A stretch of DNA of 64,000 nt, taken from the NCBI GenBank assembly GCA_030740155.1, contig JASLXV010000032.1, positions 64,001 through 128,000 of the forward strand, given 5' to 3'. Made by a program: the position numbers and the translations under genes. Below are positions 28,529-44,484 of this stretch, one piece after another. The stretch comes from Dehalococcoidia bacterium (GTDB lineage Bacteria; Chloroflexota; Dehalococcoidia; Lucifugimonadales; UBA3495). Each line of letters starts with the position of its first letter. Position 1 is the stretch's first letter. The notes under the pieces are model-generated. The model was not told the origin of the DNA and searched no databases. It was given only the letters and a program-made list of their open reading frames with translations.

Positions 28529-29529
28529 CCGGCGGCCACCTGCTGCCAGACCAGCGTGGCCGCCCCCACCAGACCGACCGAGTCTCCCAACCGGCTGGCC
28601 ACCAGGCGGAAGTCTTTGTGCCGCTCGCTCATGGCCCGTTGCTCGATCAACGAGTGAATCCGGGGCAGAAGCTCCAGCTCAGTGAGACCCGCCGTCACGC
28701 CCCCGCCCAGGACCAACAGGTCCGGGTTGTACAGGTGCAGGGTGTTGGCGAGGCCCGCGGAGAGCGCCTGGACCATCTTTTCCAGTATGTCCTTGGCCAG
28801 CCCATCGCCCTGGGACGCCGCCCGGAATACGCCCTGGGAGTCGATTGACTCGAGGTCCCCGGTGGCCAGAACGGACCCCGCCGACCCGGGCTCGGCCAGG
28901 CGGGTCCGGGCCGCCAGGGCGATGGCGGTGCCCGACGCCAGGGATTCCAGGCATCCCCGGTTGCCGCACTGGCAGCGGGGCGCCTCACCGCTCAAGTCGA
29001 TTGCCATGTGGCCGATCTCGGCGGCTAGGCCATTGGCGCCCAGGAACATCTTGCCCCGGTCGACCACGCCGCCCCCGATGCCGGTGCTGACCGTCAGGTA
29101 CACCAGGGTCCGGGTCGGGGTCCCGTCAGCCGCCGGCTCCTGGCCCGCCCCGCAATGAAACTCCCCCAGTGCGGCCAGGTTGGCGTCGTTCCCAATCCAC
29201 ACCGGATGACCGAACATGGGCTCCCAAAGCGCTTTCAGGGAGATGCCGTCTAGCTCGGGCAGGTTGGGCGGGTCGTGCAGGGTCCCGGTCGCGGCGTCCA
29301 CCGGGCCGGCGGCGGCGATCCCCACCCCGGCGACCGGCCGGCCGGCGCACCACTCTATCGCCTCACGGAGCAGACCCTCAGCCGACTTCAACAGCCGGGC
29401 CTGGCTGGCCTTCTGGGGGCTGGCCACCCGCGACTGCCACCAGATCTTCCCGTCTCGAGCGATGGCTGCCGCCCGGGTCCAGGTGCCGCCCCAGTCCATC
29501 GCTACCGCCAGTTCCGGCGACTGCGTCAT
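28525..29529 (-). CDS. ROK family sugar kinase (glucokinase-like)
   Basis: DWGGT, NDANLAALGE, STGIGGG, EIGHM, CQCGNRGCLESLASG. Confidence 0.92.
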   Translation of the reverse strand: MTQSPELAVAMDWGGTWTRAAAIARDGKIWWQSRVASPQKASQARLLKSAEGLLREAIEWCAGRPVAGVGIAAAGPVDAATGTLHDPPNLPELDGISLKALWEPMFGHPVWIGNDANLAALGEFHCGAGQEPAADGTPTRTLVYLTVSTGIGGGVVDRGKMFLGANGLAAEIGHMAIDLSGEAPRCQCGNRGCLESLASGTAIALAARTRLAEPGSAGSVLATGDLESIDSQGVFRAASQGDGLAKDILEKMVQALSAGLANTLHLYNPDLLVLGGGVTAGLTELELLPRIHSLIEQRAMSERHKDFRLVASRLGDSVGLVGAATLVWQQVAAG

Positions 29530-29712
29530 ATTCTCCCCACTCTGGGCGCAAGATTGCTAGTTTTCATGATAGCAGTTCACCGCTTGGTTCGCGAAGCCGC
29601 CCAAGACGAGGTGATTCGAGGAGGTTTATCCTAACAGTTCCGAAAGGGCTGCTTCCAAGATTGCGCCACGATGTTTTGGCCGGGGGTGCCGGATGCGGAG
29701 GCCTCGCCGCCG

Positions 29713-30345
29713 TCAGTCCCGGCCGCCGCCGGAGCCGTCGCCGCCGCCAGTGCCGCCGCCGGAGCCGCTGCCGGTTCCACGGGCAGGCTCCGCGGCCAGC
29801 AATTCGTCCAGGGCCGCCCGCAACGAGGCGGCGTTCATCGGCCCCACGAATTTCTTCACCAAAAGCCCGCCGCCGTCGATGAGGAATTTCTCCGGAATAC
29901 CCCTGACGCCATAGTCGATGGCGATGGTCCCCCTGGCGTCGATGCCGTTGGGGTAGGTGACGCCGTAACGCTCCAGGTAGGCCTCGGCGTCATCCCTGCG
30001 GTCCCAGATGTCGACGCCGATGAATTCAACGCCTCGATTCCGGTATTCCAGGTATGCCTGGGCCAGGATTGGGGCCTCCTTGCGGCAAGGGGGGCACCAA
30101 GACGCCCAGAAATCAAAGAGCAGGACGTGGCCCCGCAGGCTGGACAGGGTCACCGTGGAGCCGTCGAGCAACTCCAGGGAGAACTCTGGGGCGGCGTCAC
30201 GATCGACCTGGATTTCGCCGTAAGCATTGTTGACTCCCAGGCCGCCCGGGCTGCCGCCCGACTCGACCAACGCCCAGGCCAGCAGCGCAATCAATCCCAA
30301 CACCGGGATTGAGGAGCCCAGCAATATCCAGCCTCGTTTGCTCAA
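29713..30345 (-). CDS. ccmG: TlpA/CcmG thiol-disulfide oxidoreductase
   Basis: N-terminal TM; FWASWCPPCRKE; YGVRGIPE; in ccm cluster. Confidence 0.85.
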   Translation of the reverse strand: MSKRGWILLGSSIPVLGLIALLAWALVESGGSPGGLGVNNAYGEIQVDRDAAPEFSLELLDGSTVTLSSLRGHVLLFDFWASWCPPCRKEAPILAQAYLEYRNRGVEFIGVDIWDRRDDAEAYLERYGVTYPNGIDARGTIAIDYGVRGIPEKFLIDGGGLLVKKFVGPMNAASLRAALDELLAAEPARGTGSGSGGGTGGGDGSGGGRD

Positions 30346-31625
30346 CTCTCCAACTCACTCTCTTTGCCGTCTGGCCGCTCCCGTTCTCCCGGCGGCGCTT
30401 GATCCTCCCCGCCCTTGGGCTGAGGAGTCTCCAATATCCGGTTCTTCAGCCGGTCTCGCTGGGGCCGGTATTCCTCCTCCGGCAGGTCCCCTCGCTGGAA
30501 CCCCTCGTCGAGGGCCGCTATCTCGTGGATCAGGGAGGCTCGCTGTGGCGGCTCCCGGCCGATCCCCTCGGGGGCGGCTGCCACGGAGGGAACGGCCCTC
30601 CGCGAAGCGCCGGTTATCCCGAGCAGCAACAGGATGGCCAGGACCGCGCCGGCGGCCCCAGGCACGGCCGCCCGCCAGAGGGCGGCACTGCTGGCCGATT
30701 TGCCGAGACGCGTCGCCAGACCGGGCTCGGGAAGGTTCGACAGCTCCAGGACCAGGTCCTGGCCGATCTGGAAATCCCTACCCTGCCAGACCCGGTAGAA
30801 GGACCCTTCGATGTTTACCGTTGGGGCCGGTTCCAGAGGAGCGACCTGGATCGAAGCCATCTGCTCGGGCACCAGCACCTGGAATAGGGCCGATCCCTGG
30901 ATAAAGCTCTGCCGGTAGGAGGCCCGGTCACCCCGGTAGGAAAAGCGGAAAGAGAAGTCGACCGCGTGTTCTCCGGGGACCACGGCTGAATCGATGGCGA
31001 ATCCGGTGCCGGTGGGCAGGATATCTCCACCGGGCAGGTCCGACTGCACGCTGAGGTCCTCGGCCAGGGGCGGCAGCGAGAAGCCCAGGAAGCCCTCCCC
31101 CCCCACCTCCACGGGACCGGGCAGGAAGGTGCGGTCGCTCGGGTTTTTCAGTCTCACGAACTCGAAGGCCGATATCTCCCGGTTCTTCTCATCTACACCG
31201 GCGATCAGCAGGGCCTGGAGGCTCACCGTCAGGACTGACGGGTCCTGGGTCGTCTCGTACACGGTGAGCCGGACCTCATCAACCAGTTCATTCGGGCCCA
31301 GCTCCTCGGTATAGAACACTCCTTGGTAGTCTACGCTGAGGAGGTAGCGCCCTCCTTCCAGCAGGGGCACCTGGTCGAAACGAAAGCTGGCGCCATCGCC
31401 GATCGTCGTCTGGTCCGCCGTTCTCAGGTTTCCCGCCTGGTCGGAGGCCAGCAGGAATACCGGGAGGTCCGGAGGGGTTGCCGCGCCGCTGGTGCCGTTG
31501 GACACTGTTCCTTGGATCGTGATCGTTTCCTGGGCGTTGCTCGTGTCCGGACCTCCCGCCGCGAGGGCCAGGGTCAGAGCCGTGATCAGCACGGCCAGCC
31601 GTATGCCCAACCGCCGGCCCCTCAT
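30342..31625 (-). CDS. Secreted, membrane-anchored protein with carboxypeptidase-regulatory-like beta domain (ccm-cluster associated)
   Basis: Signal peptide, I.GTV.NGT, C-terminal TM then IAALDE.F..G.L.EEEY...R..LK; ATG overlaps upstream stop (ATGA). Confidence 0.7.
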   Translation of the reverse strand: MRGRRLGIRLAVLITALTLALAAGGPDTSNAQETITIQGTVSNGTSGAATPPDLPVFLLASDQAGNLRTADQTTIGDGASFRFDQVPLLEGGRYLLSVDYQGVFYTEELGPNELVDEVRLTVYETTQDPSVLTVSLQALLIAGVDEKNREISAFEFVRLKNPSDRTFLPGPVEVGGEGFLGFSLPPLAEDLSVQSDLPGGDILPTGTGFAIDSAVVPGEHAVDFSFRFSYRGDRASYRQSFIQGSALFQVLVPEQMASIQVAPLEPAPTVNIEGSFYRVWQGRDFQIGQDLVLELSNLPEPGLATRLGKSASSAALWRAAVPGAAGAVLAILLLLGITGASRRAVPSVAAAPEGIGREPPQRASLIHEIAALDEGFQRGDLPEEEYRPQRDRLKNRILETPQPKGGEDQAPPGERERPDGKESELES

Positions 31626-32068
31626 GCTGAAGCTGGATCCGAGGGGCCGGACTTTTCGCCGCACTCGGGGCAGGCGCCGCTGCCCGGCGCCGAAGCCGCT
31701 CCGCAGCCGGGACAAGGGCGTGAGATTCCACCGGATCCCCATAGTTCCGACCGGGCTGCCAGTACTTCCTGCTCCAACGCCCAGTCGGGATCGCTTTCCC
31801 GCTCCTTCACCACTTGCCGCAGCGCGGTGGCGGCCTGGAGGCGGTAACCCTGAAGCTGTTCCCGGTATAGCTGGTCCGGCACCTGCCCCAACTCGTGCTC
31901 CAGCCGCAGGATGCGAATGGCCTCGTAAATGGCCTCCAACTCCGGCGCTTCCTGATCCACTGCAACCACCGGACCCTCACCCCAATTCCTCGAACGAGAC
32001 TTGAGGAACGGGAAGGCCACTATGGCAACGCTGAACACGGCCAGGGCAGCGCCCAATACCAATCCCAT
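31622..32068 (-). CDS. CcmI-like small membrane protein with C-terminal zinc ribbon
   Basis: N-terminal TM, IYEAIR.L.LEHELG....Y, CPGCG...CPECG. Confidence 0.7.
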   Translation of the reverse strand: MGLVLGAALAVFSVAIVAFPFLKSRSRNWGEGPVVAVDQEAPELEAIYEAIRILRLEHELGQVPDQLYREQLQGYRLQAATALRQVVKERESDPDWALEQEVLAARSELWGSGGISRPCPGCGAASAPGSGACPECGEKSGPSDPASA

Positions 32069-32245
32069 GCTGTTAGCCTGCTTTCACTATCGAATGTTGA
32101 GCGGTCAGTAACTAGCTTTCAGCTGTCAGCCCTTTTCTGGCCGAAGGCGGCCGAACGGCAATACGCGAGAGAGGGCCTCCCGCTGTAACGCCGGCCGTCC
32201 CACCGGCCTTCAACCTGGCGGCCGACCGCTGCTCACCTGCGAGCC

Positions 32246-34243
32246 TCACGCCGTGGTGGGCCTGGTGGCCGCCGGGACTCGCCCCGGTGCGGGCTCCCGG
32301 GACGGCGCCCGGCGGCGCTGGGGCCATAGCGCGACCACGGTGCCCGCCACGAGCACCGGTCCCGCCACCCACATCCACCAGATGAGCGGGTTCACCAGGA
32401 CCCGGAACCCAACCATTCCGTTGGAGAGGTTCTCACTGGGAACCACGTACAGGTCCTCCACCGGAGTCGACCGGATGGCGGCCCGAGTCGACGCCATGCT
32501 GAAGGCGGGGTAGAAGGCCCGGGCCGGCCGCATGATCGTCAACAGCTTGCCGTCCCGGTAGACCTCGACTTCGGACACAAACTCGGTGCGATTACCCTTT
32601 TCCTCTTCCTGCGTGCCCAGGTACCGTAGCTCGTACTCCGCAATGGTCAAGCTATCGCCGGGGGCCAGCACCGCGTCTCGCTGGGTGTTGAAAAATGTGG
32701 TGCCGACGATGCCCAGCGCCAGCATTACCACCGATAGATGGACGATGTACCCGCCATACCGGGGCCGGTTGGCCGCGAGGAGACGGAAGAACGCCGTTGG
32801 GTAGCTCTCCCCAGACGAGCGGTGCCTGACACGAGTACCCCGGGACCACTCCAGAAGTATGCCGGCGGTCACCAGCGCTCCCAGACCGAATCCCGTGAGC
32901 GGGTACGCCTGCCGCACGCCCAGGGCCAGCAGCAGCACCACCAACGCCACGGCGATGAGGCCGGGCAGGAGCAGTGCCCGGCGGACGCTGGCCGGGGTCG
33001 CCCGGCGCCAGGGCAGCAGGGGGCCCACCCCCATCAAGAAAAGCAGGCCCAGCAGCAGCGGCCCGTTCACCTGGTCGTAGAAGGGGCGGGCCACGGTGAT
33101 CTCCTCGCCGATGGCCAGGCGGGATAGCAAAGGGTAGACAGTGCCCCAGAGGGTGACGAAGGCGATGGCCAGCAACAGGAAGTTATTGACCAGGAAGGCC
33201 GCCTCGCGGGACAGCATCGAGTCAAGTTTCTGGGCACTCTTGAGCAGCGGATAGCGCCAGAAGAAGACGGCGAAGGGCACCAGCACGCCCACGGCCAAGA
33301 AGACGAGGAAGATCCACCCCAGGGTGGAGGCCCCGAAGGAGTGCACCGAGGCGACCTGACCGCCCCGGTTCATGAACATGCCGTACAGGGCCATGCCGAA
33401 GGACACGTTAATCAGCACGATATTCCACATCCGGAACATCCCCCGCCGCTTTTGCACCATGATGGAGTGGACGAATGCGGTCAGGGCCAGCCAGGGCATC
33501 AGTCCCGCGTTTTCCACCGGGTCCCAGAACCAGAACCCGCCCCATCCCAGAATGGTGTAGGCCCACCAGGAGCCCAGCAGCAGGCCGCTCGCCAGCAAGA
33601 CCCAGGACACGATCCCCCACAAGCGGCCCTGGTCCACCCACTCGTCCCCGCTCTTGCCGCCTAATTGGGAGCCCAGGGCGAAGGCGAAGGGCAAGGTGAT
33701 GCCGATCAGGCCGGCCATCAGGGCTGGGGGATGGAAGAACATGCCCACATGGGTCAGCAGCGGGTTGAGGCCCTCGCCGTCGGCCGGGATGAAGGGCAGC
33801 TTTTCGAAGGGGTTCGCCATGAACGCCGTCACCGCCAGGAAGAACGCCAGAACCAGCATCAAGATCGCGGTGGTGTAGGGCAGGGTGTCGCGGACTTTCA
33901 CCGGCGCCCGCCAGATGGCGATGCCCGACATCGCCGACAGCACGAAGGCGATGAAGAGCAGCGACCCCTCGTTGCCGGCGTAGAACGCCACCCAGGTGAA
34001 GCGGCCGGCCATCGCCAGATCGCTGTGGCGGGCCACGTAGGCTATCTCGAAGTCCCGGTTGATGAATGCCGACACCAGGCTGAGGGTCGCCACCAGGAGC
34101 ACCAGGACCGTCAGGTATGCGGCACTTCGGGAACTCTGGATCAGGACTGGAACACCCCGGACCTGGCCCACCAAAGACCCAATGGCGGCGTAGGCCGAGA
34201 GAGCCAGCGCCAGCAGTAAGCAGATTGCGCCTAGATCAGCCAT
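32246..34243 (-). CDS. ccmF: Cytochrome c maturation heme lyase CcmF
   Basis: AGNEGSLL, GLNPLL, HPP, WAY..LGWGGFWFWDPVENA, SVHSF, EDLYV, NPLI.WMW. Confidence 0.95.
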   Translation of the reverse strand: MADLGAICLLLALALSAYAAIGSLVGQVRGVPVLIQSSRSAAYLTVLVLLVATLSLVSAFINRDFEIAYVARHSDLAMAGRFTWVAFYAGNEGSLLFIAFVLSAMSGIAIWRAPVKVRDTLPYTTAILMLVLAFFLAVTAFMANPFEKLPFIPADGEGLNPLLTHVGMFFHPPALMAGLIGITLPFAFALGSQLGGKSGDEWVDQGRLWGIVSWVLLASGLLLGSWWAYTILGWGGFWFWDPVENAGLMPWLALTAFVHSIMVQKRRGMFRMWNIVLINVSFGMALYGMFMNRGGQVASVHSFGASTLGWIFLVFLAVGVLVPFAVFFWRYPLLKSAQKLDSMLSREAAFLVNNFLLLAIAFVTLWGTVYPLLSRLAIGEEITVARPFYDQVNGPLLLGLLFLMGVGPLLPWRRATPASVRRALLLPGLIAVALVVLLLALGVRQAYPLTGFGLGALVTAGILLEWSRGTRVRHRSSGESYPTAFFRLLAANRPRYGGYIVHLSVVMLALGIVGTTFFNTQRDAVLAPGDSLTIAEYELRYLGTQEEEKGNRTEFVSEVEVYRDGKLLTIMRPARAFYPAFSMASTRAAIRSTPVEDLYVVPSENLSNGMVGFRVLVNPLIWWMWVAGPVLVAGTVVALWPQRRRAPSREPAPGRVPAATRPTTA

Positions 34244-34294
34244 GGGGAATGAAGCCTGCCTCCTTTTTGGCCTGCCAGACCGGCGAAGCCGCGG

Positions 34295-34933
34295 CTAGCG
34301 CTCGCCTTCCGGTTGAGAATCTTCGCCCCGAAGGGGTCCTACGCCGCCGGCGCCCGGGTTGGATGCAACTTGGGTCTCGCCGCCACTCTCGGACATCATG
34401 GAGGCCGGCCGGCGCCCGGAGGGTCCTTCGCCGTTCAGCAGGCCCAGGTCCCGGTCTACGGTCTCCAGGAAAGGCTCCAGGCCGTCTTCCGGTGACGGCC
34501 CGGCAGCGGGCTTTCCACCACCGCCGGCCGCCATCGACCGGAGAATCGCCAGCGCGCCCACCAGCGCCGCCACGACCCCGGCCACGGGCAAGATCCAGGC
34601 CAGCAGGTTAACGCCGGACTTGGGTGGGGCGGCCAAGACACCGGGCCCGTAACGGTCGACGAAGAAGTCCAGGATTTTAGCGCGGCTGGAGCCATGGGAC
34701 AGCATCTCCCGTACCACTCCGCGCATCTGCCGGGCCAACTCCACCTGGGCCTGGTCGATGGTCTCGGCCGGGCAAACCGGGCACATCAGGCTCCGGTCGA
34801 TGGCCTGGGCTTCTTCCTCGTCGTAGGGCAGGACCTGGGCCAGGGCGGTGCCTCCGCTCAGCAGCAACACCGGGAGCAGCCCCGCGATAAGCGCCAGGGA
34901 CCTAGGCCAGTTGGATGGCAATCGAATGCCCAT
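34295..34933 (-). CDS. ccmH: Cytochrome c maturation protein CcmH
   Basis: LMCPVC, A.QMR..V, FVDRYG..VL..P, W.LP. Confidence 0.9.
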   Translation of the reverse strand: MGIRLPSNWPRSLALIAGLLPVLLLSGGTALAQVLPYDEEEAQAIDRSLMCPVCPAETIDQAQVELARQMRGVVREMLSHGSSRAKILDFFVDRYGPGVLAAPPKSGVNLLAWILPVAGVVAALVGALAILRSMAAGGGGKPAAGPSPEDGLEPFLETVDRDLGLLNGEGPSGRRPASMMSESGGETQVASNPGAGGVGPLRGEDSQPEGER

Positions 34934-35505
34934 ATACCAGTCCCAGTTGGGGGTCTCGGCGGGCCGGGCGGTCCCCCGGGTTCTTGACGGAGACCGGCGA
35001 CGCGGGCCGGTGGTTGAGGAATGGGGTCCGGGCTTGAGCCTCCCTTCCCGGTCGGCCATGGAGCCGGACCAGGACACCCTGCGTCGGCTCCCCTTGGCGG
35101 TGGGACAACGGCGAGGGCAAGGTGGAGGGAAAACCCGTCTCCCAATCGACCGGCGTCCCGTGGCAGTGGAGGCCACGGGCTTCAAGCCCGCTGAAGTCTG
35201 GCGTTGGCGTGGCGGGTGGTGGGCTCAAAATCCCTTGAAGTCGGAGGCAGCAACCCGGCTTGCGGAAATCATCAGGAGTAGCTGGTTCATTGCTGCTGTT
35301 GAGGATCGATGATGTGCTTCGCCGCGGCTCTGAGGCCCGACGACGCGGGACACCACCACTCCGCTAAGGATAAACCCCTCGATGCCCCGATTGTCAATGG
35401 CCGTGTACGTGCGGCGTAGGGACAACCGGGGCGTGGCTTACTCGAGACAGCGCCGTCACCGGTGCCCGTCTTGAGACCCCGGTATTCTCCCACGGCCAGA
35501 CGGCG

Positions 35506-36486
35506 TTACGGGGTAACCACGAAGTCTCCGAACATGGTGAAGTTGTGTCCGGGGAATGTACACACGAACTGGTAGGTGCCCGCCGCGGGGGCGTCGAAGC
35601 TGACATCTCCCGTGGCGCCCGCGTTTAGCACCTTGGTGTTGGCGATAACGTCGGCGTCGCCGGGCTGTACCCAGTCGTTGCCGGGACCGGCCGCGGTGCC
35701 TCGGGAGGAAACGGCGTCTTTCGTCCCGGCTTTCACGATCACCACGTTATGCTGATTGATGCCGGAGACGTTATCGAAGCTCAGGACCACCTCGCTGCCG
35801 GCGGCGACCTCTAAAGCGTCTTTGTCGAACTGGAGCGCGTCCCCGTTGACGCTGATCTCCAGGGTGCCGGCCGCTGATGAGTCATCGGGCGGCTGTGTCG
35901 GCGGAGGTGTGGCCTCTGGGGTCGCGGTCTCGCCAGCCGCACCGGTCATACCTGCCGACGTCGGGGCCAGCGTGCTGGTGATGTATTCGACAATGGCGGT
36001 TTGTTCGCCAGCGGTCAGCAGCTTGCTGAAGTTCGGCATCGCGACAACGCCGGAGCGCATGAAGCCCAGGATGCCTCCGGGGCCGATGGCCTTGGCCTGG
36101 TCGGAGGTCAGGTCCGGGCTGACGGCGGCCTCGTAGCCGTAGGAGTTGACCAGCGTTTGCAGCACCGGCCCGTCGCCCTGGCCGGTCAGGCCGTGGCACA
36201 TCGAGCAGTTGACCATGTACAGGTGCCGCCCGTCGGTGAACGACGTGGATTCAGGACCGGGATACCAGGCCACGGAACTCGCCGGCGCACTCAACCGGGG
36301 TGGCTCGTGAGACTTGTAGGTCTGCTGGTAGTGCATCTCGTAGAAGATGTCCAGGGGATAGGCCCCCTGGCTGCACCCGGCGGCTACCAGGCCCAACAAG
36401 AGAGCCAGGCCGAATAGGTAGCCCCGGACCCTTCGACGGCCGGCGCTACGGGGTTGATTCGGTTGTGTCGTTCGCTGATTGCTCAT
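35506..36486 (-). CDS. actE: ACIII subunit ActE (monoheme cytochrome c lipoprotein) fused to an auracyanin-like cupredoxin domain
   Basis: Lipobox AAGC, EMHYQ, CSMCHG..G.GDG, AMP Met ligand, PT linker, then HNVVIV...CTFPGH..TM type-1 Cu site. Confidence 0.88.
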   Translation of the reverse strand: MSNQRTTQPNQPRSAGRRRVRGYLFGLALLLGLVAAGCSQGAYPLDIFYEMHYQQTYKSHEPPRLSAPASSVAWYPGPESTSFTDGRHLYMVNCSMCHGLTGQGDGPVLQTLVNSYGYEAAVSPDLTSDQAKAIGPGGILGFMRSGVVAMPNFSKLLTAGEQTAIVEYITSTLAPTSAGMTGAAGETATPEATPPPTQPPDDSSAAGTLEISVNGDALQFDKDALEVAAGSEVVLSFDNVSGINQHNVVIVKAGTKDAVSSRGTAAGPGNDWVQPGDADVIANTKVLNAGATGDVSFDAPAAGTYQFVCTFPGHNFTMFGDFVVTP

Positions 36487-36500
36487 TCCCGTGTGAATCC

Positions 36501-37010
36501 CTAGGTTTCCCGTACCACGTCTACGGCACCCGCTTGGGTAAGTATGCCGGACACCTGCGGCAGCTGTTCCTCTTCGGCGTTAACTAGGACGCCGATGTAG
36601 CCCTCGGTGATGCGGGTGTCGTACAGGCCAAGCTTAAACTTGGGCAACCGGAACTCGAAGATAATCCCGAGCACGGTGAACATTATGGCGCCCAGCATGG
36701 TGGTCTCGTAGGTTACCACCGCCATCGGTGGGAGGGATAGGATGGGCTTGCCCCCCTGCACCAGGGGGTAGGCCATCTGGGTCATGGAGGTCAGGATGAT
36801 ACCCGCCGTCAATCCGATCAACGCGCCGACAAAGGGGAAGATGTACAGCCGGTGGGGCTCAGGCCGTTCCCCGAAAGCCCCTTCCGGGTAGGGGGCGTCG
36901 GTCAGGAAGTCGTAATCATTGGGCGATATGTTCGCAGCCTGCAGGGCATCCCCCGCTTCGGCAGCGTAGTTTGCATCTTCAAAGAGCCCCAGTATCGGCC
37001 GTCTCGCCAT
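36501..37010 (-). CDS. actD: ACIII subunit ActD (DUF3341)
   Basis: GLF, PYP, YPL.QGGKP..S.PP..V.TYE.T.L, YD.RI.EG.IG. Confidence 0.88.
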   Translation of the reverse strand: MARRPILGLFEDANYAAEAGDALQAANISPNDYDFLTDAPYPEGAFGERPEPHRLYIFPFVGALIGLTAGIILTSMTQMAYPLVQGGKPILSLPPMAVVTYETTMLGAIMFTVLGIIFEFRLPKFKLGLYDTRITEGYIGVLVNAEEEQLPQVSGILTQAGAVDVVRET

Positions 37011-37079: not shown

Positions 37080-38471
37080 TTAATCCTCTCGAAATACCGC
37101 GGGCACGGTCCGGCGCCCAATCTTGAACTCGGTCTTCAGGATGTCCCCTTCTTTTATGTCGTAAAGCGGTATCAGCGGGACCACTTTGCTCAGCAGCAGG
37201 ACCAGCATGGCCACCATGGCGAAGGTCGCTCCGATGATGACGGCCTCTACCCAGGTGGGGCGGTAGGTGTACCAGTCGAAGGAGAACATCTGCTTCTGCG
37301 CCAGTCCGGGCACGAAAATCAGGAACCTCTCCAGCCACATGCCGATGTTAACCGCGATGCAGGCGATTGACATAATCCACAGGTTGCGGCGGGCGCCCTT
37401 GTTCAGCCACAGACTCACCGGCAGGAAGTAGGTCAGTATCACAAAGGCGATCATCCACAGGTTCCAGGGCGGCTGGGTAAACTGGAAGCTGCGCAGCGCG
37501 ATCTCGTCAGCCTCCCGCCCGTAGAACCCGAAAACCACTTCCATCACGAAGAAGTAGAACCAGCCGGTGGCCACCACTATCAGCAAGCGTCCCAGGGCGT
37601 CGATGTGCTCGTGGCGGATGTAAGACTGCCACCCGTAGGCCCAGCGCAGCAGTATCATCACGAAGGTAACCGCCGAGACTCCCGAGTGGACGGCGCCCAC
37701 CACGAAGTAGGGGGCGAAGATTGTCGAGTGCCACGACTTGACCGACACGGCCATGCCGAAGTCCCAGGAGACTATGCTGTGGACCGACACGAACACCGGC
37801 AGTATCAGCGCCGACAGCAGCACTCCCGCGATAATCTGAAGCTTCCATTGGCGCGGGTTGCCCTGCCAGCCCATGGCCAGCACCCCGTATATCTTGTGGC
37901 TGATCCCGGTGGTGCGGTCTCGAAGCACCGCCAGGTCGGGGAGCAGCGCGACCATAACGAACAGGATGCTGGAGGTCAGGTAGGTGAATATGGCGCTGGG
38001 GTCCCACACCAGGGGCGACCGGATGTTGGGCCATACCCCGCGGGCGATGTCGTAGGGAACGAAGGGCACGGTGTAGACCCAGTAGACCAGGCGCCAGGGA
38101 CGACCGCTGTGAATCAGCGGCATCAGCACCGCGGTCATCAGCGAGAAGACTGTGAGCACTTCGGCAGCCCGGGTGGCCGGCCTCCGCCACTCGGCCTTGG
38201 AGAGCCGTAGGATGGCGGACAGCATAACGCCCGCATGGCTGATACCGATCCAGAAGACGAAGTTGGTGATGAAGAATCCCCACATCACCGGCCGGTTCAG
38301 CCCGGTCACTCCCAGGCCGCGGTTGATCATGTAGCCTGTGGCGCCCAGGGCGATCAGGACGATCATACCCAGGATGGCGATCGTAAACCAGAACCACTTG
38401 GGCGTGAACAGGATCGATCGCAGTAGGTCCGCGTTAACCTGTTTTGCCGATAGGACTCTACCTTCCTGCAT
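37080..38471 (-). CDS. actC: ACIII subunit ActC (NrfD/PsrC family quinol-binding subunit)
   Basis: GLGVTGL..PV.WG..ITNFVFWIGISHAG, WRRP.TRAAE, HSGRPW, SPLVWD, VSVHSIVSWDF, WHSTIFAPYFV.GA.HSG, GMWLERF. Confidence 0.93.
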   Translation of the reverse strand: MQEGRVLSAKQVNADLLRSILFTPKWFWFTIAILGMIVLIALGATGYMINRGLGVTGLNRPVMWGFFITNFVFWIGISHAGVMLSAILRLSKAEWRRPATRAAEVLTVFSLMTAVLMPLIHSGRPWRLVYWVYTVPFVPYDIARGVWPNIRSPLVWDPSAIFTYLTSSILFVMVALLPDLAVLRDRTTGISHKIYGVLAMGWQGNPRQWKLQIIAGVLLSALILPVFVSVHSIVSWDFGMAVSVKSWHSTIFAPYFVVGAVHSGVSAVTFVMILLRWAYGWQSYIRHEHIDALGRLLIVVATGWFYFFVMEVVFGFYGREADEIALRSFQFTQPPWNLWMIAFVILTYFLPVSLWLNKGARRNLWIMSIACIAVNIGMWLERFLIFVPGLAQKQMFSFDWYTYRPTWVEAVIIGATFAMVAMLVLLLSKVVPLIPLYDIKEGDILKTEFKIGRRTVPAVFRED

Positions 38472-38574: not shown

Positions 38575-39981
38575 CTATTCAGGTTTGGCCAACACCAGGT
38601 AGTGGCCGCGTATAAAGGTGCCCATCCGCTGATACATGGTGCCCTCTTTGACCTCCCAAGTGGAGAGAATCGGTATCAGCCGCGTTGCCGCTAGGTAGAA
38701 CAGGGCAGCTCCTCCTATCCCGCCCAGGATCATGAACACGTCCCAAACGTCGGGCCAGACTGCCGCGGGCACGTGGGACAACCCCAGGTTGTATATGTCC
38801 CCCGCATTGAACGACCCGACGAAGGTCCGGATGTTGAAAAGTAAAGCTCCCACCAGGGCGGACAGGCCGGCCAGCGGCGCTCCCCAAGCTCTCCGGCGCA
38901 CCGGGTTCCACAGCAGGATCAAGAGGGGCAGGGCGAAGCTGAATATGAAATTGGCCAAGAACACCCAGCCGTAGGCCTCGAAGAACAGGTACTTGAGGAT
39001 GTTCTGCTCTACCTCCAGGCGGCCAAACCAGTAGGTCACGCCGAAGGCGAAGACCATGTAGCACCACAGCAGGGTGAAACCCAGGAGTATCTTGCTGGCC
39101 GACCAGAAGGGCGACACGCCGATGTACTCCTGGTAGCCTCCCCAGCGGCGCAGAATGAACAGTATCACCAGGATCATGCCCAGGGATGACTGAAAGCTGG
39201 TGAGCGTGTATATGACCGGGAAAATCGAGTCTTTCCAGCCCGGTATCAGGCTCTGGCCGAACTCCGTGCTGATGATGAAGTGGATGTAAAGCAGGAACAT
39301 GAAGTAGAACCCGCCCAGCATGGCCAGCGCGGCCTTCTGGGTGATCCACTGCCGCTTGGTGCCGTACCAGTGTCCCGCCAGGAGCGAGTACACCTTCCGG
39401 CGAAGCCCGGTGGACGACAGCCGGGCCTCCGCCATGTCGGGCATCGCGGAGAACCACAGGATGGCCAGGCCCAGAATGGCCAGGAAGATCACGCCCAGCA
39501 GGTCCCACACGTAGGGAGCGCCGACGGGCACTTCAAACCAGAGGGTGCGGCGTACCTCCATCTGCTCGGGCCCGGAGCCGGGGTTCTTGATGGGTGGCAT
39601 CACCAGCATCAACGGGATGAACATCAGGAGGGTGAAGATGCTCACCACGGAGAACAGCTCCGCTATTCGCGAGAGGGGGCGTCTCCAGTGGCTCTTGGTG
39701 AACCGGAAAGCGACCGCCGCCAACGGAGCGGTTCCGGTAACCATGAATACAAACGAGAAGACGGCGGCGTAGTAGCCCCAGGGCCCATGCTCGCTGAAAC
39801 CATCATCGATGACCCGGACGATGAAGCCGGTGATCCCCAACACGAGCAGCATGGCCGAGATGGTCATGGCGATCGCCAACCGGTCGGGCAGGACGAAGGT
39901 CTTGCCCAACAGGTCCTTGGTTACCTTGTTCGCCTCGGGGAAGACCCATACTCCGGCGTTATGATGTCCGTTAACCGCCAT
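38575..39981 (-). CDS. actF: ACIII subunit ActF-like NrfD paralogue
   Basis: Colinear with ActC (WG.Y, WRRPLSRIAE, P.VWD, PGWKDSIFP) but lacks HxGRPW. Confidence 0.75.
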   Translation of the reverse strand: MAVNGHHNAGVWVFPEANKVTKDLLGKTFVLPDRLAIAMTISAMLLVLGITGFIVRVIDDGFSEHGPWGYYAAVFSFVFMVTGTAPLAAVAFRFTKSHWRRPLSRIAELFSVVSIFTLLMFIPLMLVMPPIKNPGSGPEQMEVRRTLWFEVPVGAPYVWDLLGVIFLAILGLAILWFSAMPDMAEARLSSTGLRRKVYSLLAGHWYGTKRQWITQKAALAMLGGFYFMFLLYIHFIISTEFGQSLIPGWKDSIFPVIYTLTSFQSSLGMILVILFILRRWGGYQEYIGVSPFWSASKILLGFTLLWCYMVFAFGVTYWFGRLEVEQNILKYLFFEAYGWVFLANFIFSFALPLLILLWNPVRRRAWGAPLAGLSALVGALLFNIRTFVGSFNAGDIYNLGLSHVPAAVWPDVWDVFMILGGIGGAALFYLAATRLIPILSTWEVKEGTMYQRMGTFIRGHYLVLAKPE

Positions 39982-40780
39982 GGGCGTTATCCTTGCTCAA
40001 AGGAAATTGATCGACCTTCTTCAGGTATATGACGTTGGGTTTGGTGCCCATCTCTTCCAGCAGACGGTAAACCCGGGTATCGCCCGGATCCAAATGCTCT
40101 CCCCTCTTCCGGGCTTCGATCTGCTCGTTGGCCTCCTTGAAGCGCTCGTGGACCGGCCCGGTAATGTCCCCCTGGTCGGCGAAGGTCAACGCGTTGGTGG
40201 GGCAGGCCGCGACGCAGGCGGGCAGAAGGTTGAGTTCCGCCATCGCCGCATGGTCCAGCGTCCTCCGTTCCCGTCTCTCTACCGTTATTTCGGCCCGGCG
40301 GATCCGTTGGATGCAGAAGGTGCATTTCTCCATGATGCCGCGGCTTCGCACGGTGATGTCGCTGTTCAGTTGGTGTCTCATCCGTTCCGGCCACACCGGC
40401 TCCCACCAGTTGAAGAACCGGGCCTGATAGGTGCAGTTGTTGGCACAGTAGCGGGTGCCGACGCACCGGTTGTAGACTTGAACGTTGAGCCCTTCATCAT
40501 TGTGGTAGGTGGCGTACACCGGGCACACCGGTTCGCACGGGGCGTTCTCGCAGTGCTGGCACATTATCGGAATGAAACGGGCCTTTACGTTGGGGAACTC
40601 CCCTTCCCAGTACCGCTCGATGCGGATCCACTCGAAGGACCTGCCCTTCTGGAAGTAGTCCCTTATGTTGATGGGCAGGTTGTTCTCCGCCTGGCACGAC
40701 ACCACGCAGGCTTGGCACCCGGTACATTGGTCCAGGTCCACAACCATGCCCCATTTGTGATCGATCCTAGGTGTAACCAT
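39971..40780 (-). CDS. actB2: ACIII iron-sulfur subunit ActB2 (4Fe-4S dicluster)
   Basis: DLDQCTGCQACVVSC, CQHCENAPCEPVCP, CVGTRYCANNC, MEKCTFC, PACVAACP. Confidence 0.9.
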   Translation of the reverse strand: MVTPRIDHKWGMVVDLDQCTGCQACVVSCQAENNLPINIRDYFQKGRSFEWIRIERYWEGEFPNVKARFIPIMCQHCENAPCEPVCPVYATYHNDEGLNVQVYNRCVGTRYCANNCTYQARFFNWWEPVWPERMRHQLNSDITVRSRGIMEKCTFCIQRIRRAEITVERRERRTLDHAAMAELNLLPACVAACPTNALTFADQGDITGPVHERFKEANEQIEARKRGEHLDPGDTRVYRLLEEMGTKPNVIYLKKVDQFPLSKDNAHGG

Positions 40781-40871: not shown

Positions 40872-43178
40872 CTACTCAGGCGCGATGGTATGAATAATCC
40901 GCTCACCGTGGGTATTGCCTACTTCCACCGCCCGGACAATTCCCTCGAACTTGGCTATCTTAACCCTTTCTCCCGTGGGGGTCACGGTCACCCGGGTATT
41001 GGCCCACGCCAGCGCCCCGGTCCCGTCAACCTGGCTCGGCTCCAAGATGTCCATGATGTTCGCGCTTTCTTCCTCGGGCCGGTCCGTGGCGTACTCGGAC
41101 CCGTTGCGGCGACCCTGGCCAAGGGGCACGGAGATCGTGCCGGGGGGCACTGCCGGAGTCAGGTACACCATCGCCCGGATGGAGCCCTTGGAAGACTCGA
41201 TGCGGACGACGTCGCCTTCCTTGACCTTCAGCCCTTTGGCGTCATGATCGCTGATCTCCACCCAGGTCTGCCAGGCGACGGTCGACAGCGGGTCGGGCGT
41301 CCCCTGAAGCCAGGGCAGGTGGGCATGGCGGCCGTCCAACAGCGTGTTATGGGCGAAGGGCGTCAGGTAGAACGTGCCGGCGCCCAGGCCCTTGCCGGGG
41401 AACTGGGGCTCCGCCGCCTTGTCCGCGATGCCGCCGAGGAGGCCCTGTTTCGCGTTAATCGCTCCCGGTCCGGCGGTCCCTTCGTCCCACCAGCCGCCGC
41501 GTTGCAGCAGCCTGGTCCAGAACTCTCCGGAGGAAGCGGCCTGGATCGAACCCCGGTTGAGGGCGAAGAGGGCGTCCGAGCTTTCCTTGAGCATCTGTTG
41601 GTAGCTGGGCCAGGGCAGGCTGGCGTCCTTGCCCAGCTCCTGGGCCACGTTCAGAAGAAGGTCCGGGAAGCTCCGGGGGTCCAAATCATGGAGAGGGTTG
41701 ACCACCGGTTGCTGGAACCCGACGACTTCGTAGCCCGGACCCGGCTCCGGGATGTCGGTGCCCCAGTCCTCGAGATACACCCGGTCGGGCAGGACCAGGT
41801 CCGCCATGATGCTGGTCTCGTCCAGGAAGGGCGAGAAGCTGACGATGAACAGGTCGCTGGCACCGGCGATGGCGTCCTTCAATCCGAGGGAGGCGGGCAG
41901 GCCGTGGACCGGGTCCGCTTGATGCAGCAGCAACAGCTTGGTGGCGCCGGTCCGCAGGCTATCGACTTCGGTTCTCCACTGGGACAAGGTGGCCGTTTCT
42001 CCGGCCGCCGGCGCCTCATCCAGGGGGCTGTTGGGATTGAACCTGATGCCACCCTTGGCGCCCACGCTTCCCACCAGGTAGTTGAGGGCGTAGATGGCCT
42101 CCAGGTTGAACAGGCCGTTTGTGTGGGCCCCCGCCGATCCTCCGCCGATGGCCAGGCTGGGGCTCCCACCGGCGAACTCCCGGGCCAAGCTGCGGATGGT
42201 GTCGACGCGAGCCTGGTCTCCGATGATCTCGGCGAGGAAAACCTTGTCGGCAACGACCTCGGGCCGGAAGGCTTCGAGTGCCGCTGCTCCCTTGCCGCCG
42301 GTCAAGGCCCCGACGTTCACGCCATCTGCCTGCAGGCCCTCGGAGATGATGACGTAGGCTAGGCTCAGGGCCAGGTGTCCTTCCCAGCCGGGCCGGATGG
42401 GGATCCACCGGTCGGCGTTCGCCGCCGTCATGGAGAAACGGGGGTCGACGTGATAGAAGGTCCCTCGCTTCCGCCCCTCTCCCTGGCGGAACTGGCCGTA
42501 GCCCTGGTTCCAGCGGGTGGGTGACACCCAGGTGGAGAGGAAATCGGCGCCGAAGGTCAGCAGGAACCCGGCGTTTTCGATGTCGAAGTCGGGCAGCAGG
42601 TCCTGGCCGAAGACGTTCTTGACCGCGGTGCGGTAGGTGTTGTCGTCCAACGCCTCGAAGCCAAGGTGCCGTCCACCCACTTCCTTGGAAAAGCGGCTGA
42701 CCACGGTAGCCAGGTGACCGCGCAGGGGCTCGGTAACCGCCAGCATCCCAGCGCCCCGTTCGTCCAACTTCTGCCGGAGGGTGTCCATGGCGCTGGCCCA
42801 AGAGACCGGCGTGAACTGGCCGGAACCTCGGGGCCCGCTGCTCTGCATGGGACCGGCGACCCGGTCCGGATGGTACAGAGCCTGGAGGCCGGCGTCGCAC
42901 CGGGCGCTCTGCTTCCCCAGGTTAATGGGGTAGAGGGGGTTGCCCTGGATCTTCTTAGCCCGGCCTTCCATCACCCGAACCAGGATGCCCTCTCCGGTTG
43001 GGCAATTGCGGCAGAGGGTCGCGTACCAGTTATCGGACCCCTTTACCAGGTCTTCGGGCAGCATTGCCGGGCTCTGAATATCCAGTTCCCCGTGACGGAT
43101 TCCAAATCCTTCACAGGCTACCGCCCCAACGGCGGAGATACCGGCCCACGCTAGAAAGTTGCGCCGCGTCAGTTTCAT
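40872..43178 (-). CDS. actB1: ACIII ActB1 molybdopterin-oxidoreductase-like subunit (Tat substrate)
   Basis: TRRNFL Tat signal, GRAKKIQGNP.YP, YHPDR, FGADFL.TW, ADLVLP, PWLQ..PDP...W.TWVE. Confidence 0.88.
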   Translation of the reverse strand: MKLTRRNFLAWAGISAVGAVACEGFGIRHGELDIQSPAMLPEDLVKGSDNWYATLCRNCPTGEGILVRVMEGRAKKIQGNPLYPINLGKQSARCDAGLQALYHPDRVAGPMQSSGPRGSGQFTPVSWASAMDTLRQKLDERGAGMLAVTEPLRGHLATVVSRFSKEVGGRHLGFEALDDNTYRTAVKNVFGQDLLPDFDIENAGFLLTFGADFLSTWVSPTRWNQGYGQFRQGEGRKRGTFYHVDPRFSMTAANADRWIPIRPGWEGHLALSLAYVIISEGLQADGVNVGALTGGKGAAALEAFRPEVVADKVFLAEIIGDQARVDTIRSLAREFAGGSPSLAIGGGSAGAHTNGLFNLEAIYALNYLVGSVGAKGGIRFNPNSPLDEAPAAGETATLSQWRTEVDSLRTGATKLLLLHQADPVHGLPASLGLKDAIAGASDLFIVSFSPFLDETSIMADLVLPDRVYLEDWGTDIPEPGPGYEVVGFQQPVVNPLHDLDPRSFPDLLLNVAQELGKDASLPWPSYQQMLKESSDALFALNRGSIQAASSGEFWTRLLQRGGWWDEGTAGPGAINAKQGLLGGIADKAAEPQFPGKGLGAGTFYLTPFAHNTLLDGRHAHLPWLQGTPDPLSTVAWQTWVEISDHDAKGLKVKEGDVVRIESSKGSIRAMVYLTPAVPPGTISVPLGQGRRNGSEYATDRPEEESANIMDILEPSQVDGTGALAWANTRVTVTPTGERVKIAKFEGIVRAVEVGNTHGERIIHTIAPE

Positions 43179-43200: not shown

Positions 43201-43842
43201 TCACTTGTGGCACACCGTGCAATCGGTGGGGACGTTGTTCTGCCGGTGGCAGTCCAGGCACGTGCCCATCTTCAGCGATTGGAACCGCTTGGGTTTGACC
43301 TTGGTCATGGCGGCCACGTCGCCGTGGCACGTGGAGCAGACCGCCTGCACTTTCTGTTCGCTGGGGAGGTCCGACGTATCCTGCTGAGTGAAGAACCGGA
43401 TGTGGGCCTCATGGACGAAGCGCACGTGGTCGGGCATCCGGTGCACCCGTTCCCAGTTGATGGGATCGCCGTCAGCGAAGCTCTGGCTGACCTTGGCCAT
43501 CTCCGCCAGGTTCACGTTGGTCAGGCCCACCAGATTCTCGTCGGCGATCTGTTCGTGGCAGAACATACACTGCTCCACCGCGGGTACGGTGGCGGCGGTG
43601 CCCTTGGTCACGTTCCGGTGGCAAAATTCGCACTGGATGCCCGCTCCACCTGTCTCGACAGTTCCCGCGTGGACCGTGTGGGGGAAGGCCACGGGCTGAG
43701 CCGGAGCGTTCCCCAGGCCGAAGGGCGGGTTGGAAAACCAGGAAATGAGCACCACGACGATCACGAAGCCGACTATGAGCGTAACTCCGGCGCTCACCAC
43801 GCCCAACGCCAGCATCTTTCCGCTCAGTCCCATCGGCAGCAA
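43201..43842 (-). CDS. actA: ACIII pentaheme cytochrome c ActA
   Basis: N-terminal TM; QPVAFPH..H; five CxxCH motifs (CEFCH, CMFCH, CSTCH, CLDCH, CTVCH). Confidence 0.92.
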   Translation of the reverse strand: MLPMGLSGKMLALGVVSAGVTLIVGFVIVVVLISWFSNPPFGLGNAPAQPVAFPHTVHAGTVETGGAGIQCEFCHRNVTKGTAATVPAVEQCMFCHEQIADENLVGLTNVNLAEMAKVSQSFADGDPINWERVHRMPDHVRFVHEAHIRFFTQQDTSDLPSEQKVQAVCSTCHGDVAAMTKVKPKRFQSLKMGTCLDCHRQNNVPTDCTVCHK

Positions 43843-43941: not shown

Positions 43942-44238
43942 CTAAATCAAGTACCGGTCCCAGAAATTGTCCACTTCCAGCGTTTGGTCGATACCCAGGA
44001 CCAGAATGGTGACAGCGACGAGCAACACCAGAAACGCGAACCCGGTCAGCGGAACTCTGAACCGGTGGGCCGTCTGAGGTAGTTGGCCGGTCATTATCAG
44101 GGATGGTATCAGCGCGTGGGCGACCAGCATCGTAATCGCGAACGTGACGATCAAAGGAACATAAGTCCAGAACAACTGAAGCCAAATATGGATGTCGTTC
44201 CAATTGGCGTTGGTCAACGCTTTGGGATCGTCAAACAT
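43942..44238 (-). CDS. Small two-TM membrane protein heading the act operon
   Basis: MFDDPKALTNANW..LVAHALIPSL..TG.LP..R..L; lies between a putative promoter and actA. Confidence 0.6.
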   Translation of the reverse strand: MFDDPKALTNANWNDIHIWLQLFWTYVPLIVTFAITMLVAHALIPSLIMTGQLPQTAHRFRVPLTGFAFLVLLVAVTILVLGIDQTLEVDNFWDRYLI

Positions 44239-44302
44239 CTTGAGTGCTGCACCGCCAGGGGCTTGGTTTGGGGCAGGACGCGCCTCAACGGAAGCCAGGT
44301 GA

Positions 44303-44331
44303 AAAATATCACAGCACCCTATGAGTGTCAA
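44303..44331 (-). promoter_or_regulatory. Putative promoter of the act operon
   Basis: TTGACA-17 nt-TATTTT on minus strand. Confidence 0.5.
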
Positions 44332-44484
44332 GGGGATGGCAGCGCCAATCTCTCCCGCCAAGGGTCCAACCGGCGTGGCTGCAACACCAGGCGGTGGCGC
44401 CGCAAACCGAAAGAGTAGGACCTGCTTGCAGTATTATTTCGGAGCAATAATCTCCGTGGCGGGCGCTTCGTGAACGCAATTCAG

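Follow-up and report, generated by a model that had tools for sequence, protein, structure and literature searches.

In alternative complex III (ACIII), electrons from quinol oxidised at ActC are reported to pass through a [3Fe-4S] cluster and the five haems of ActA to ActE (PMC8552683, PMC7439408), which in Roseiflexus bears a lipid anchor on Cys33 (PMC7439408). The role of ActE is debated: the subunit is described as dispensable in Flavobacterium, whereas it has been proposed as the electron exit in Rhodothermus and in Roseiflexus (PMC8552683). Roseiflexus ACIII reduces the blue-copper protein auracyanin in vitro, with auracyanin or cytochrome c551 given as alternative acceptors, and known auracyanins are reported to have midpoint potentials of about +205 to +246 mV (PMC10873879). 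For Chloroflexus aurantiacus, auracyanin A has been put forward as the carrier between ACIII and cytochrome c oxidase (PMC9316378). The original prediction for the DNA analysed here took auracyanin to be a separate protein in phototrophic Chloroflexus and Roseiflexus; in Roseiflexus, this separate protein is already membrane-tethered and is described as swinging on a tether of its own (PMC10873879).

We analysed a window of 64,000 nucleotides from a Dehalococcoidia genome bin (93.7% complete, 7.65% contamination), in which a single open frame at 35506-36486 on the minus strand translates into a protein of 326 residues. Every element named in the original prediction, namely a lipobox cysteine, an ActE-type monohaem domain, a linker and a cupredoxin with its ligand set, is present. 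The signal peptide (residues 1-37, 36376..36486) comprises a basic stretch and a hydrophobic helix, modelled as helical over residues 15-38, with VAAG preceding Cys38 (36373..36375) in the lipobox LVAAGC38. This cysteine, the predicted lipid-anchor site of ActE, is conserved in at least 90% of 43 fused and 49 head sequences, and the lipidation enzymes Lgt and LspA were both found in the host genome. The ActE monohaem head (residues 38-175, 35962..36375) contains EMHYQ at residues 50-54 (EMHY, 36328-36339), CSMCH at residues 94-98 (36193-36207) and an AMP motif, with Met150 (36037-36039) axial by homology. HMM scans of both halves, as had been proposed, returned Pfam Cytochrom_C/CBB3 at residues 83-172 (E 2e-9) and Copper-bind at residues 210-324 (E 1.8e-10). 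A profile of the head matches each of the four ActE chains with solved structures (6f0k_E, E 7.9e-15; 6btm_E, 6lod_E, 8k9e_E), although generic class I cytochromes equal or beat these chains by E-value, and the modelled head aligns in fold with solved ActE chains over 126-176 columns; Cys38, the CxxCH motif, Met150 and the position of the gene after actD together identify it as ActE.

The head is joined by a Pro/Thr/Ala linker of 30 residues (176-205, 35872..35961), GETATPEATPPPTQPPDD, to an auracyanin-like type-1 copper domain (residues 206-326, 35509..35871), all on the minus strand. In an AlphaFold2 model from 43 naturally paired sequences, the copper domain is confident, the ActE head moderate and the linker predicted to be disordered (pLDDT <50 at 176-205, whole-chain pTM 0.42); across 52 fused proteins the linker is 17-37 residues long (median 29), without conserved sequence. 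The predicted copper ligands H246 (35749-51), C309 (35560-62), H314 (35545-47) and M318 (35533-35), found in HN ... CTFPGHNFTM, are conserved in 53, 53, 53 and 52 of 54 fused domains respectively, the outlier being P0082, whose domain is decayed. GC3 is nearly equal in the two parts (0.83 in the ActE head, 0.82 in the copper part), and both are net acidic, at about -4 and about -9. No promoter or terminator consensus was found at 35100-36600. In two RNA runs, both from one study, contigs extend across the fusion gene and cover the act region without 28656-33303; these contigs carry neither strand nor level.

The fusion of ActE and the copper domain in one frame is genuine. In four runs from three studies, none of them marked as a potential source of the genome, single contigs run from the head through the linker into the copper domain without the stop or frameshift that was looked for in the linker: they contain no indel, and their sole difference within the gene is one synonymous change at 36010. 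A merger of two genes by sequencing or assembly error would be in keeping with the commonness of both halves as free versions and with the contamination of the bin, but the same fusion occurs in nine further genomes and about 50 protein clusters, and the bridging contigs refute such an artefact, the probability of which we regard as negligible. At least half of the sampled words are contained in 16 of the 24 listed runs, 14 of these 16 being labelled seawater or marine.

As originally predicted, the fusion gene is the last of an act operon, read as actA-B1-B2-F-C-D-E on the minus strand from Pfam and chain matches, after which come ccmH- and ccmF-like genes. Next to the fusion gene lie actD (36501..37010; PF11821, E 1.5e-27) and actC, encoding the quinol-site subunit (37080..38471; 6f0k_C, E 2e-79), in which H121, S152 and D157 align with His139, Ser164 and Asp169 of R. 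marinus (6f0k_C), residues taken from the quinol-site list given for that protein in PMC8076601. A second NrfD-like subunit (38575..39981; PF03916), read as actF, matches ActC and ActF chains weakly (E 2e-13 to 3e-6), the ActC chains better than the ActF chains, and its gene stands before actC. ActB is split into actB2, an iron-sulfur part with Fer4 families and cysteine motifs (39971..40780), and actB1, a molybdopterin-oxidoreductase-like part with a twin-arginine signal (40872..43178; ActB chains 6btm_B, 6lod_B, 6f0k_B and 8k9e_B, E 8e-29 to 5e-21). The product of actA (43201..43842; 8k9e_A, E 1.3e-22) has five CxxCH motifs and matches all four solved ActA chains, 6btm_A only at 253-407, and it lacks the sixth-haem domain that F. 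johnsoniae has at the N-terminus. With a pentahaem ActA, ActB as two genes (B1 and B2), an ActC quinol site, ActD and ActE, this is a complete act operon, predicted to encode an alternative complex III acting as quinol:acceptor oxidoreductase. The same order, as far as each locus extends, was observed in 21/21 loci, nine fused and 12 unfused.

Further genes around the operon are shared among these loci. A hydrophobic ORF of 139 residues without a Pfam match (43942-44361, minus strand) stands before actA, is present in 20/20 loci reaching that far (32-71% identity) and is possibly an extra ACIII subunit. After the operon, 29713-35185 (minus strand) holds CcmH-like, CcmF and thioredoxin/CcmG-like genes together with two unannotated membrane ORFs, and ccmH and ccmF occupy this place in 21/21 compared loci. 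Many genomes of the order contain two to five ActE-like matches each, a hint that one genome may hold several act-like operons.

Among PDB sequences, the C-terminal half matches auracyanin A best (2aan, E 3.8e-24), and Foldseek places 2aan (TM 0.88) and 6kol (TM 0.86) at ranks 1 and 2 for the copper domain. Its ligand loop, C-x4-H-x3-M, has the spacing of auracyanin A, and its identity is 42-43% to auracyanin A, to the second G441 copy and to a Roseiflexus-like copy. The proposed cupredoxin phylogeny, a quick tree over 120 columns, placed the Dehalococcoidia-type copper domains in a clade apart from C. aurantiacus auracyanin A with its relatives and from Roseiflexus auracyanin; it left the named types A-D unassigned, type A alone being identified, through an identical PDB sequence. 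By sequence and fold, the domain is thus auracyanin-like, without assignment to a named type. It is not a separate protein with an N-terminal membrane tether of its own, its predicted anchoring being through ActE, nor does it fit a cyclic photosynthetic carrier, as PF00124 is without a match in the 93.7% complete genome. The sole copies in this genome with their own signal and cysteine are two free cupredoxin lipoproteins, on contigs C52 and C82, which are 75% identical to the fused domain.

Searching Chloroflexota for the same domain order, as had been suggested, showed the fusion to be rare. Among the matches listed, full-length matches occur in 10/201 genomes of the family and 6/27 genera, a further 163 matches in the family search all scoring under the single-domain entries, and distribution is patchy within genera (3/5 genomes of g26, 1/4 of g11). 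In 400 genomes of the phylum, no match beyond the family spanned both domains among the matches listed, which comprised all but the 15 weakest. A different cupredoxin has entered the same position in genome G037, which belongs to another family of the same order: on its contig C1, a divergent ActE is followed by a Pro-rich linker and a short plastocyanin-like cupredoxin (L243:5715-6803, minus strand). Since this cupredoxin can hardly be aligned with the auracyanin-like fused domain and the protein is the sole full-length match among 301 genomes of the order, we read it as an independent fusion. Among the 120 of 615 matches listed in a protein search, 51 are ActE with a copper domain and 30 are oxidase subunit IV with a copper domain, and in a profile search, one cluster alone among the best 150 matches from 1.84 billion representatives covers the whole fusion.

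All 32 ActE-fused copper domains fall into one clade together with nine other entries (SH-aLRT 99; 115 entries, 120 columns), a clade that excludes both the subunit IV copies and the free copies of the host genome. On the ActE-head tree, fused and unfused heads are interleaved, with six changes of state; the test does not reject a single origin with four subsequent losses (p-AU 0.47, for a group named after the tree had been viewed). Two unfused g26 genomes, G069 and G107, have linker-like Pro/Ala/Thr-rich remnants directly after the actE stop (loci L138 and L139), which suggests from sequence that the copper domain has been lost there. No free cupredoxin gene adjoins unfused actE in 70/70 loci, with flanks of up to 10 kb, and a search for longer ActE proteins with additional domains, which gave six matches only and is weak evidence, found none. 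The ActE-copper fusion is a real, conserved and lineage-restricted ACIII variant of a family that appears to be SAR202-type, judged from its class, habitat and aerobic gene content. No title or abstract in our literature search dealt with an ActE-cupredoxin fusion, nor with a carrier tethered to subunit IV in Dehalococcoidia; the main ACIII surveys may list such variants.

The position behind the ActE head is also taken by haem. A second cytochrome c follows the head in the cluster representatives P0131, P0133, P0171, P0182 and P0189 and in the act operon of G040. We surveyed the oxidases of 38 hand-picked family genomes, comprising the 10 fused genomes and their close relatives without the fusion, with each of the 27 genera represented at least once, and found CoxI in 37/38 and subunit IV in 36/38. 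Subunit IV carries one or two copper domains in 15 genomes and a cytochrome c in 15, is short or bare in six and was not found in two; by motif, P0269 and P0270 have three copper domains on this subunit. These cox operons (L204-L239, for example G004:C1:1656000-1665500 and G003:C2:316000-325000) encode a caa3-type oxidase whose subunit IV has a leashed carrier predicted to be periplasmic, and the carrier adds to the haem fused to CoxII in all 29 genomes with the CoxII gene in the stretch (of 30). P0190 combines CoxII, cytochrome c and a copper domain in one protein, and the cox operon of G010 and of G025 is directly followed by a free cupredoxin gene. The slot is exchangeable on ActE as well as on oxidase subunit IV, at either end of the chain, and the leashed carriers of subunit IV may be a bigger finding than the ActE fusion.

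Among the 10 ActE-fused genomes, subunit IV bears copper in five, is bare in three (the source genome included) and is uncallable in two, and it bears haem in none; these genomes are related, and the counts are not an independent statistic. Mutual exclusion of the two copper fusions is rejected, both being present in five genomes. ActE-linked copper stands beside subunit IV copper in five genomes and beside subunit IV haem in 0/15. We tentatively propose, as a possibility that we hold with some doubt, that swappable flexible arms with haem c or blue-copper heads make up the chain between ACIII and the oxidase in this family, and that copper lineages would run a copper-to-copper relay. If true, this would amount to an iron-sparing, plastocyanin-like swap in ocean heterotrophs.

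The source genome has an oxidase with a YSHP motif, which we take to denote an A2-type haem-copper oxidase; its CoxII, with the CuA fragment at C54:116906-117652, is without cytochrome c, and its subunit IV frame is only 69 residues long, so that by sequence this predicted aa3 oxidase is without a carrier of its own. The ends of contigs C54 and C48 hold two similar, non-identical copies of the coxA end together with the beginning of the gene for subunit IV, which represent either a duplicated cox operon or contamination of the bin. The original prediction noted no photosynthesis genes in the window, and this now extends to the whole 93.7% complete genome, in which no match was found to a reaction centre, to the cytochrome b of a bc complex or to a multicopper NirK/oxidase. 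Read by eye, the genes at C13:3740-14049 form a cluster for an Nxr/Nar-like molybdoenzyme of periplasmic type, which also encodes mono- and di-haem cytochromes and a membrane subunit that looks like bd-type subunit I; at C87:1-3636, another NarG-like gene follows that of a cytochrome c. A haem-copper oxidase is present in nine of the 10 fused genomes; the tenth, G086 (91% complete), is without a CoxI match.

Taken together, we consider the copper domain to be probably a swinging one-electron shuttle between the ActE haem and CuA of the aa3 oxidase, acting directly or via the two free cupredoxins. The ActE haem would pass its electron to the leashed copper domain within the same chain, provided that the domain binds copper as its ligands predict, and the arm would then swing to CuA, the putative acceptor, or to the free cupredoxin lipoproteins, filling with copper in place of haem the role proposed for the mobile sixth-haem domain of Flavobacterium ActA. 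This proposal draws on ligands conserved in 52-53 of 54 fused domains with the loop spacing and fold of auracyanin A, on the Roseiflexus biochemistry and the C. aurantiacus auracyanin A proposal, on the exchangeable slot at ActE and subunit IV and on P0190, on an oxidase without its own carrier in a genome where the bc complex, reaction centre and multicopper NirK/oxidase were not found, on the independent G037 fusion and on the variable linker predicted to be disordered, which fits a swinging arm. The original prediction of a tethered auracyanin-like acceptor leading probably to a terminal oxidase agrees with the subunit IV copper fusions of relatives and with the carrier-less oxidase of the host. 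Its expectation that the fusion would support an ActE-auracyanin interaction is borne out in that the link is confirmed, but this is not revelatory, as transfer from ACIII to auracyanin had already been shown in vitro.

Several observations speak against the shuttle. The fusion is absent from 191/201 family genomes, half of the 10 genomes that have it already bear a copper domain on subunit IV, and the ActE head and the copper domain are both net acidic. By the Roseiflexus values of about +317 mV assigned to ActE versus +232 mV for auracyanin (PMC10873879), transfer from ActE to copper may be uphill by about 85 mV, and in F. johnsoniae, ActE is reported as dispensable for transfer to aa3 (PMC8552683). 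Nxr/Nar-type clusters with c-type cytochromes also offer other partners. The copper domain could exchange electrons with ActE and have as its other partner Nxr/Nar-type cytochromes, a peroxidase or periplasmic dehydrogenases feeding electrons in, which we judge rather unlikely: the C13 cluster, with its two c-type cytochromes and bd-like subunit, and the NarG-like gene of C87 provide candidates, a suggested role of ActE is to conduct electrons away from the ACIII-aa3 supercomplex (PMC8552683), and the fused genome G086 is without a CoxI match. However, a haem-copper oxidase is present in all fused genomes but G086, the domain recurs, outside ActE, on oxidase subunit IV (30 of the 120 matches listed), and the free copy in G010 and G025 sits just behind the cox operon.

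Inference from fusions is weakened by the promiscuity of the copper domain, which is appended to DctP, protein kinases, trypsin, a cyclophilin and NHL-repeat proteins (P0135, P0145, P0149, P0151, P0157, P0165, P0187, P0212 and P0271-P0274) and also to a di-haem peroxidase. Such fusions to many unrelated surface proteins would be expected if ActE were a mere lipid anchor for a cupredoxin serving a general carrier pool or as a copper buffer, without privileged transfer, as would the two free lipoprotein copies of 75% identity in the same genome, the repeated loss with linker-like remnants in G069 and G107, and the lack of a docking-specific surface signature in a comparison of fused and subunit IV copies. 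Yet these odd fusions are single clusters, whereas the ActE fusion recurs in 51 of the 120 matches listed and in six genera; the ActE-fused domains form one sub-lineage, and an unrelated cupredoxin and a cytochrome c took the same slot, all of which makes a mere anchor decidedly improbable. The original prediction had proposed a hard-wired quinol-haem-copper wire that may define a distinct ACIII subtype. A copper domain that is a fixed seventh cofactor, rigidly docked in a supercomplex, would suit the covalent nature of the fusion, the known ACIII-aa3/caa3 supercomplexes (PMC8552683) and the one cluster, from the 150 best matches in 1.84 billion representatives, that covers the whole fusion, but a linker of 17-37 residues with neither conserved length nor conserved sequence, modelled as disordered with a low pTM from 43 paired sequences, argues against hard-wiring. 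Similarly, the case for a subtype is weak, as the operon is otherwise the same in 21/21 loci, fused and unfused heads are interleaved on the tree and the domain is patchy within genera, so that we give this rigid arrangement very little credence.

Returning to the swinging shuttle, a specialisation of surface charge on the ActE-fused copper domain was considered and rejected. Arg262 is present in 53/54 ActE-fused domains, where 53/89 subunit IV copies have Asp; the opposite swap occurs at 279, so that we read the pair as an internal salt bridge, and the net charge of both groups is alike, at about -9 to -10.

Both partners and the idea of a tethered carrier are already known. The single-chain ActE-auracyanin is a small, predicted two-centre protein in which haem-to-copper transfer could be measured directly, and it would place auracyanin-family proteins in the oxygen respiration of non-photosynthetic marine bacteria. 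Haem and copper heads on leashes at ACIII and subunit IV further suggest how bacteria described as monoderm retain carriers at the membrane.

In comparison with known systems, the fusion likely acts like ACIII with auracyanin and like the mobile-haem arm of Flavobacterium. The complexes of Roseiflexus castenholzii (6lod/6loe, with 6kol) and Chloroflexus aurantiacus (8k9e, with auracyanin A 2aan and B 1ov8) share with the operon described here the ActA-E core beside a second NrfD-like subunit, read here as ActF, a monohaem ActE whose lipid anchor is here a predicted one, and a type-1 copper domain of the same fold, at 42% identity to auracyanin A. Here, however, the putative acceptor and ActE are one chain instead of separate proteins, ActB is split, the gene read as actF stands before actC, no reaction centre was found in the host, and the copper domain falls outside the auracyanin A/B and Roseiflexus clades. 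F. johnsoniae ACIII (6btm) likewise has a one-electron carrier tethered to the complex and proposed to swing between ActE and aa3 (PMC8552683), but there it is a haem c at the N-terminus of ActA, whereas here it is a copper domain at the C-terminus of ActE. Di-haem ActE variants likewise extend the C-terminus of ActE by one more redox domain, which holds haem instead of copper. In caa3-type oxidases, cytochrome c is fused to CoxII, which likewise tethers an electron donor to the oxidase; the Dehalococcoidia family hangs an extra copper or haem carrier on subunit IV besides the CoxII haem. Finally, cyanobacteria interchange plastocyanin and cytochrome c6, copper and haem carriers with the same job, and there the swap is regulated, whereas in this family it is genetic.
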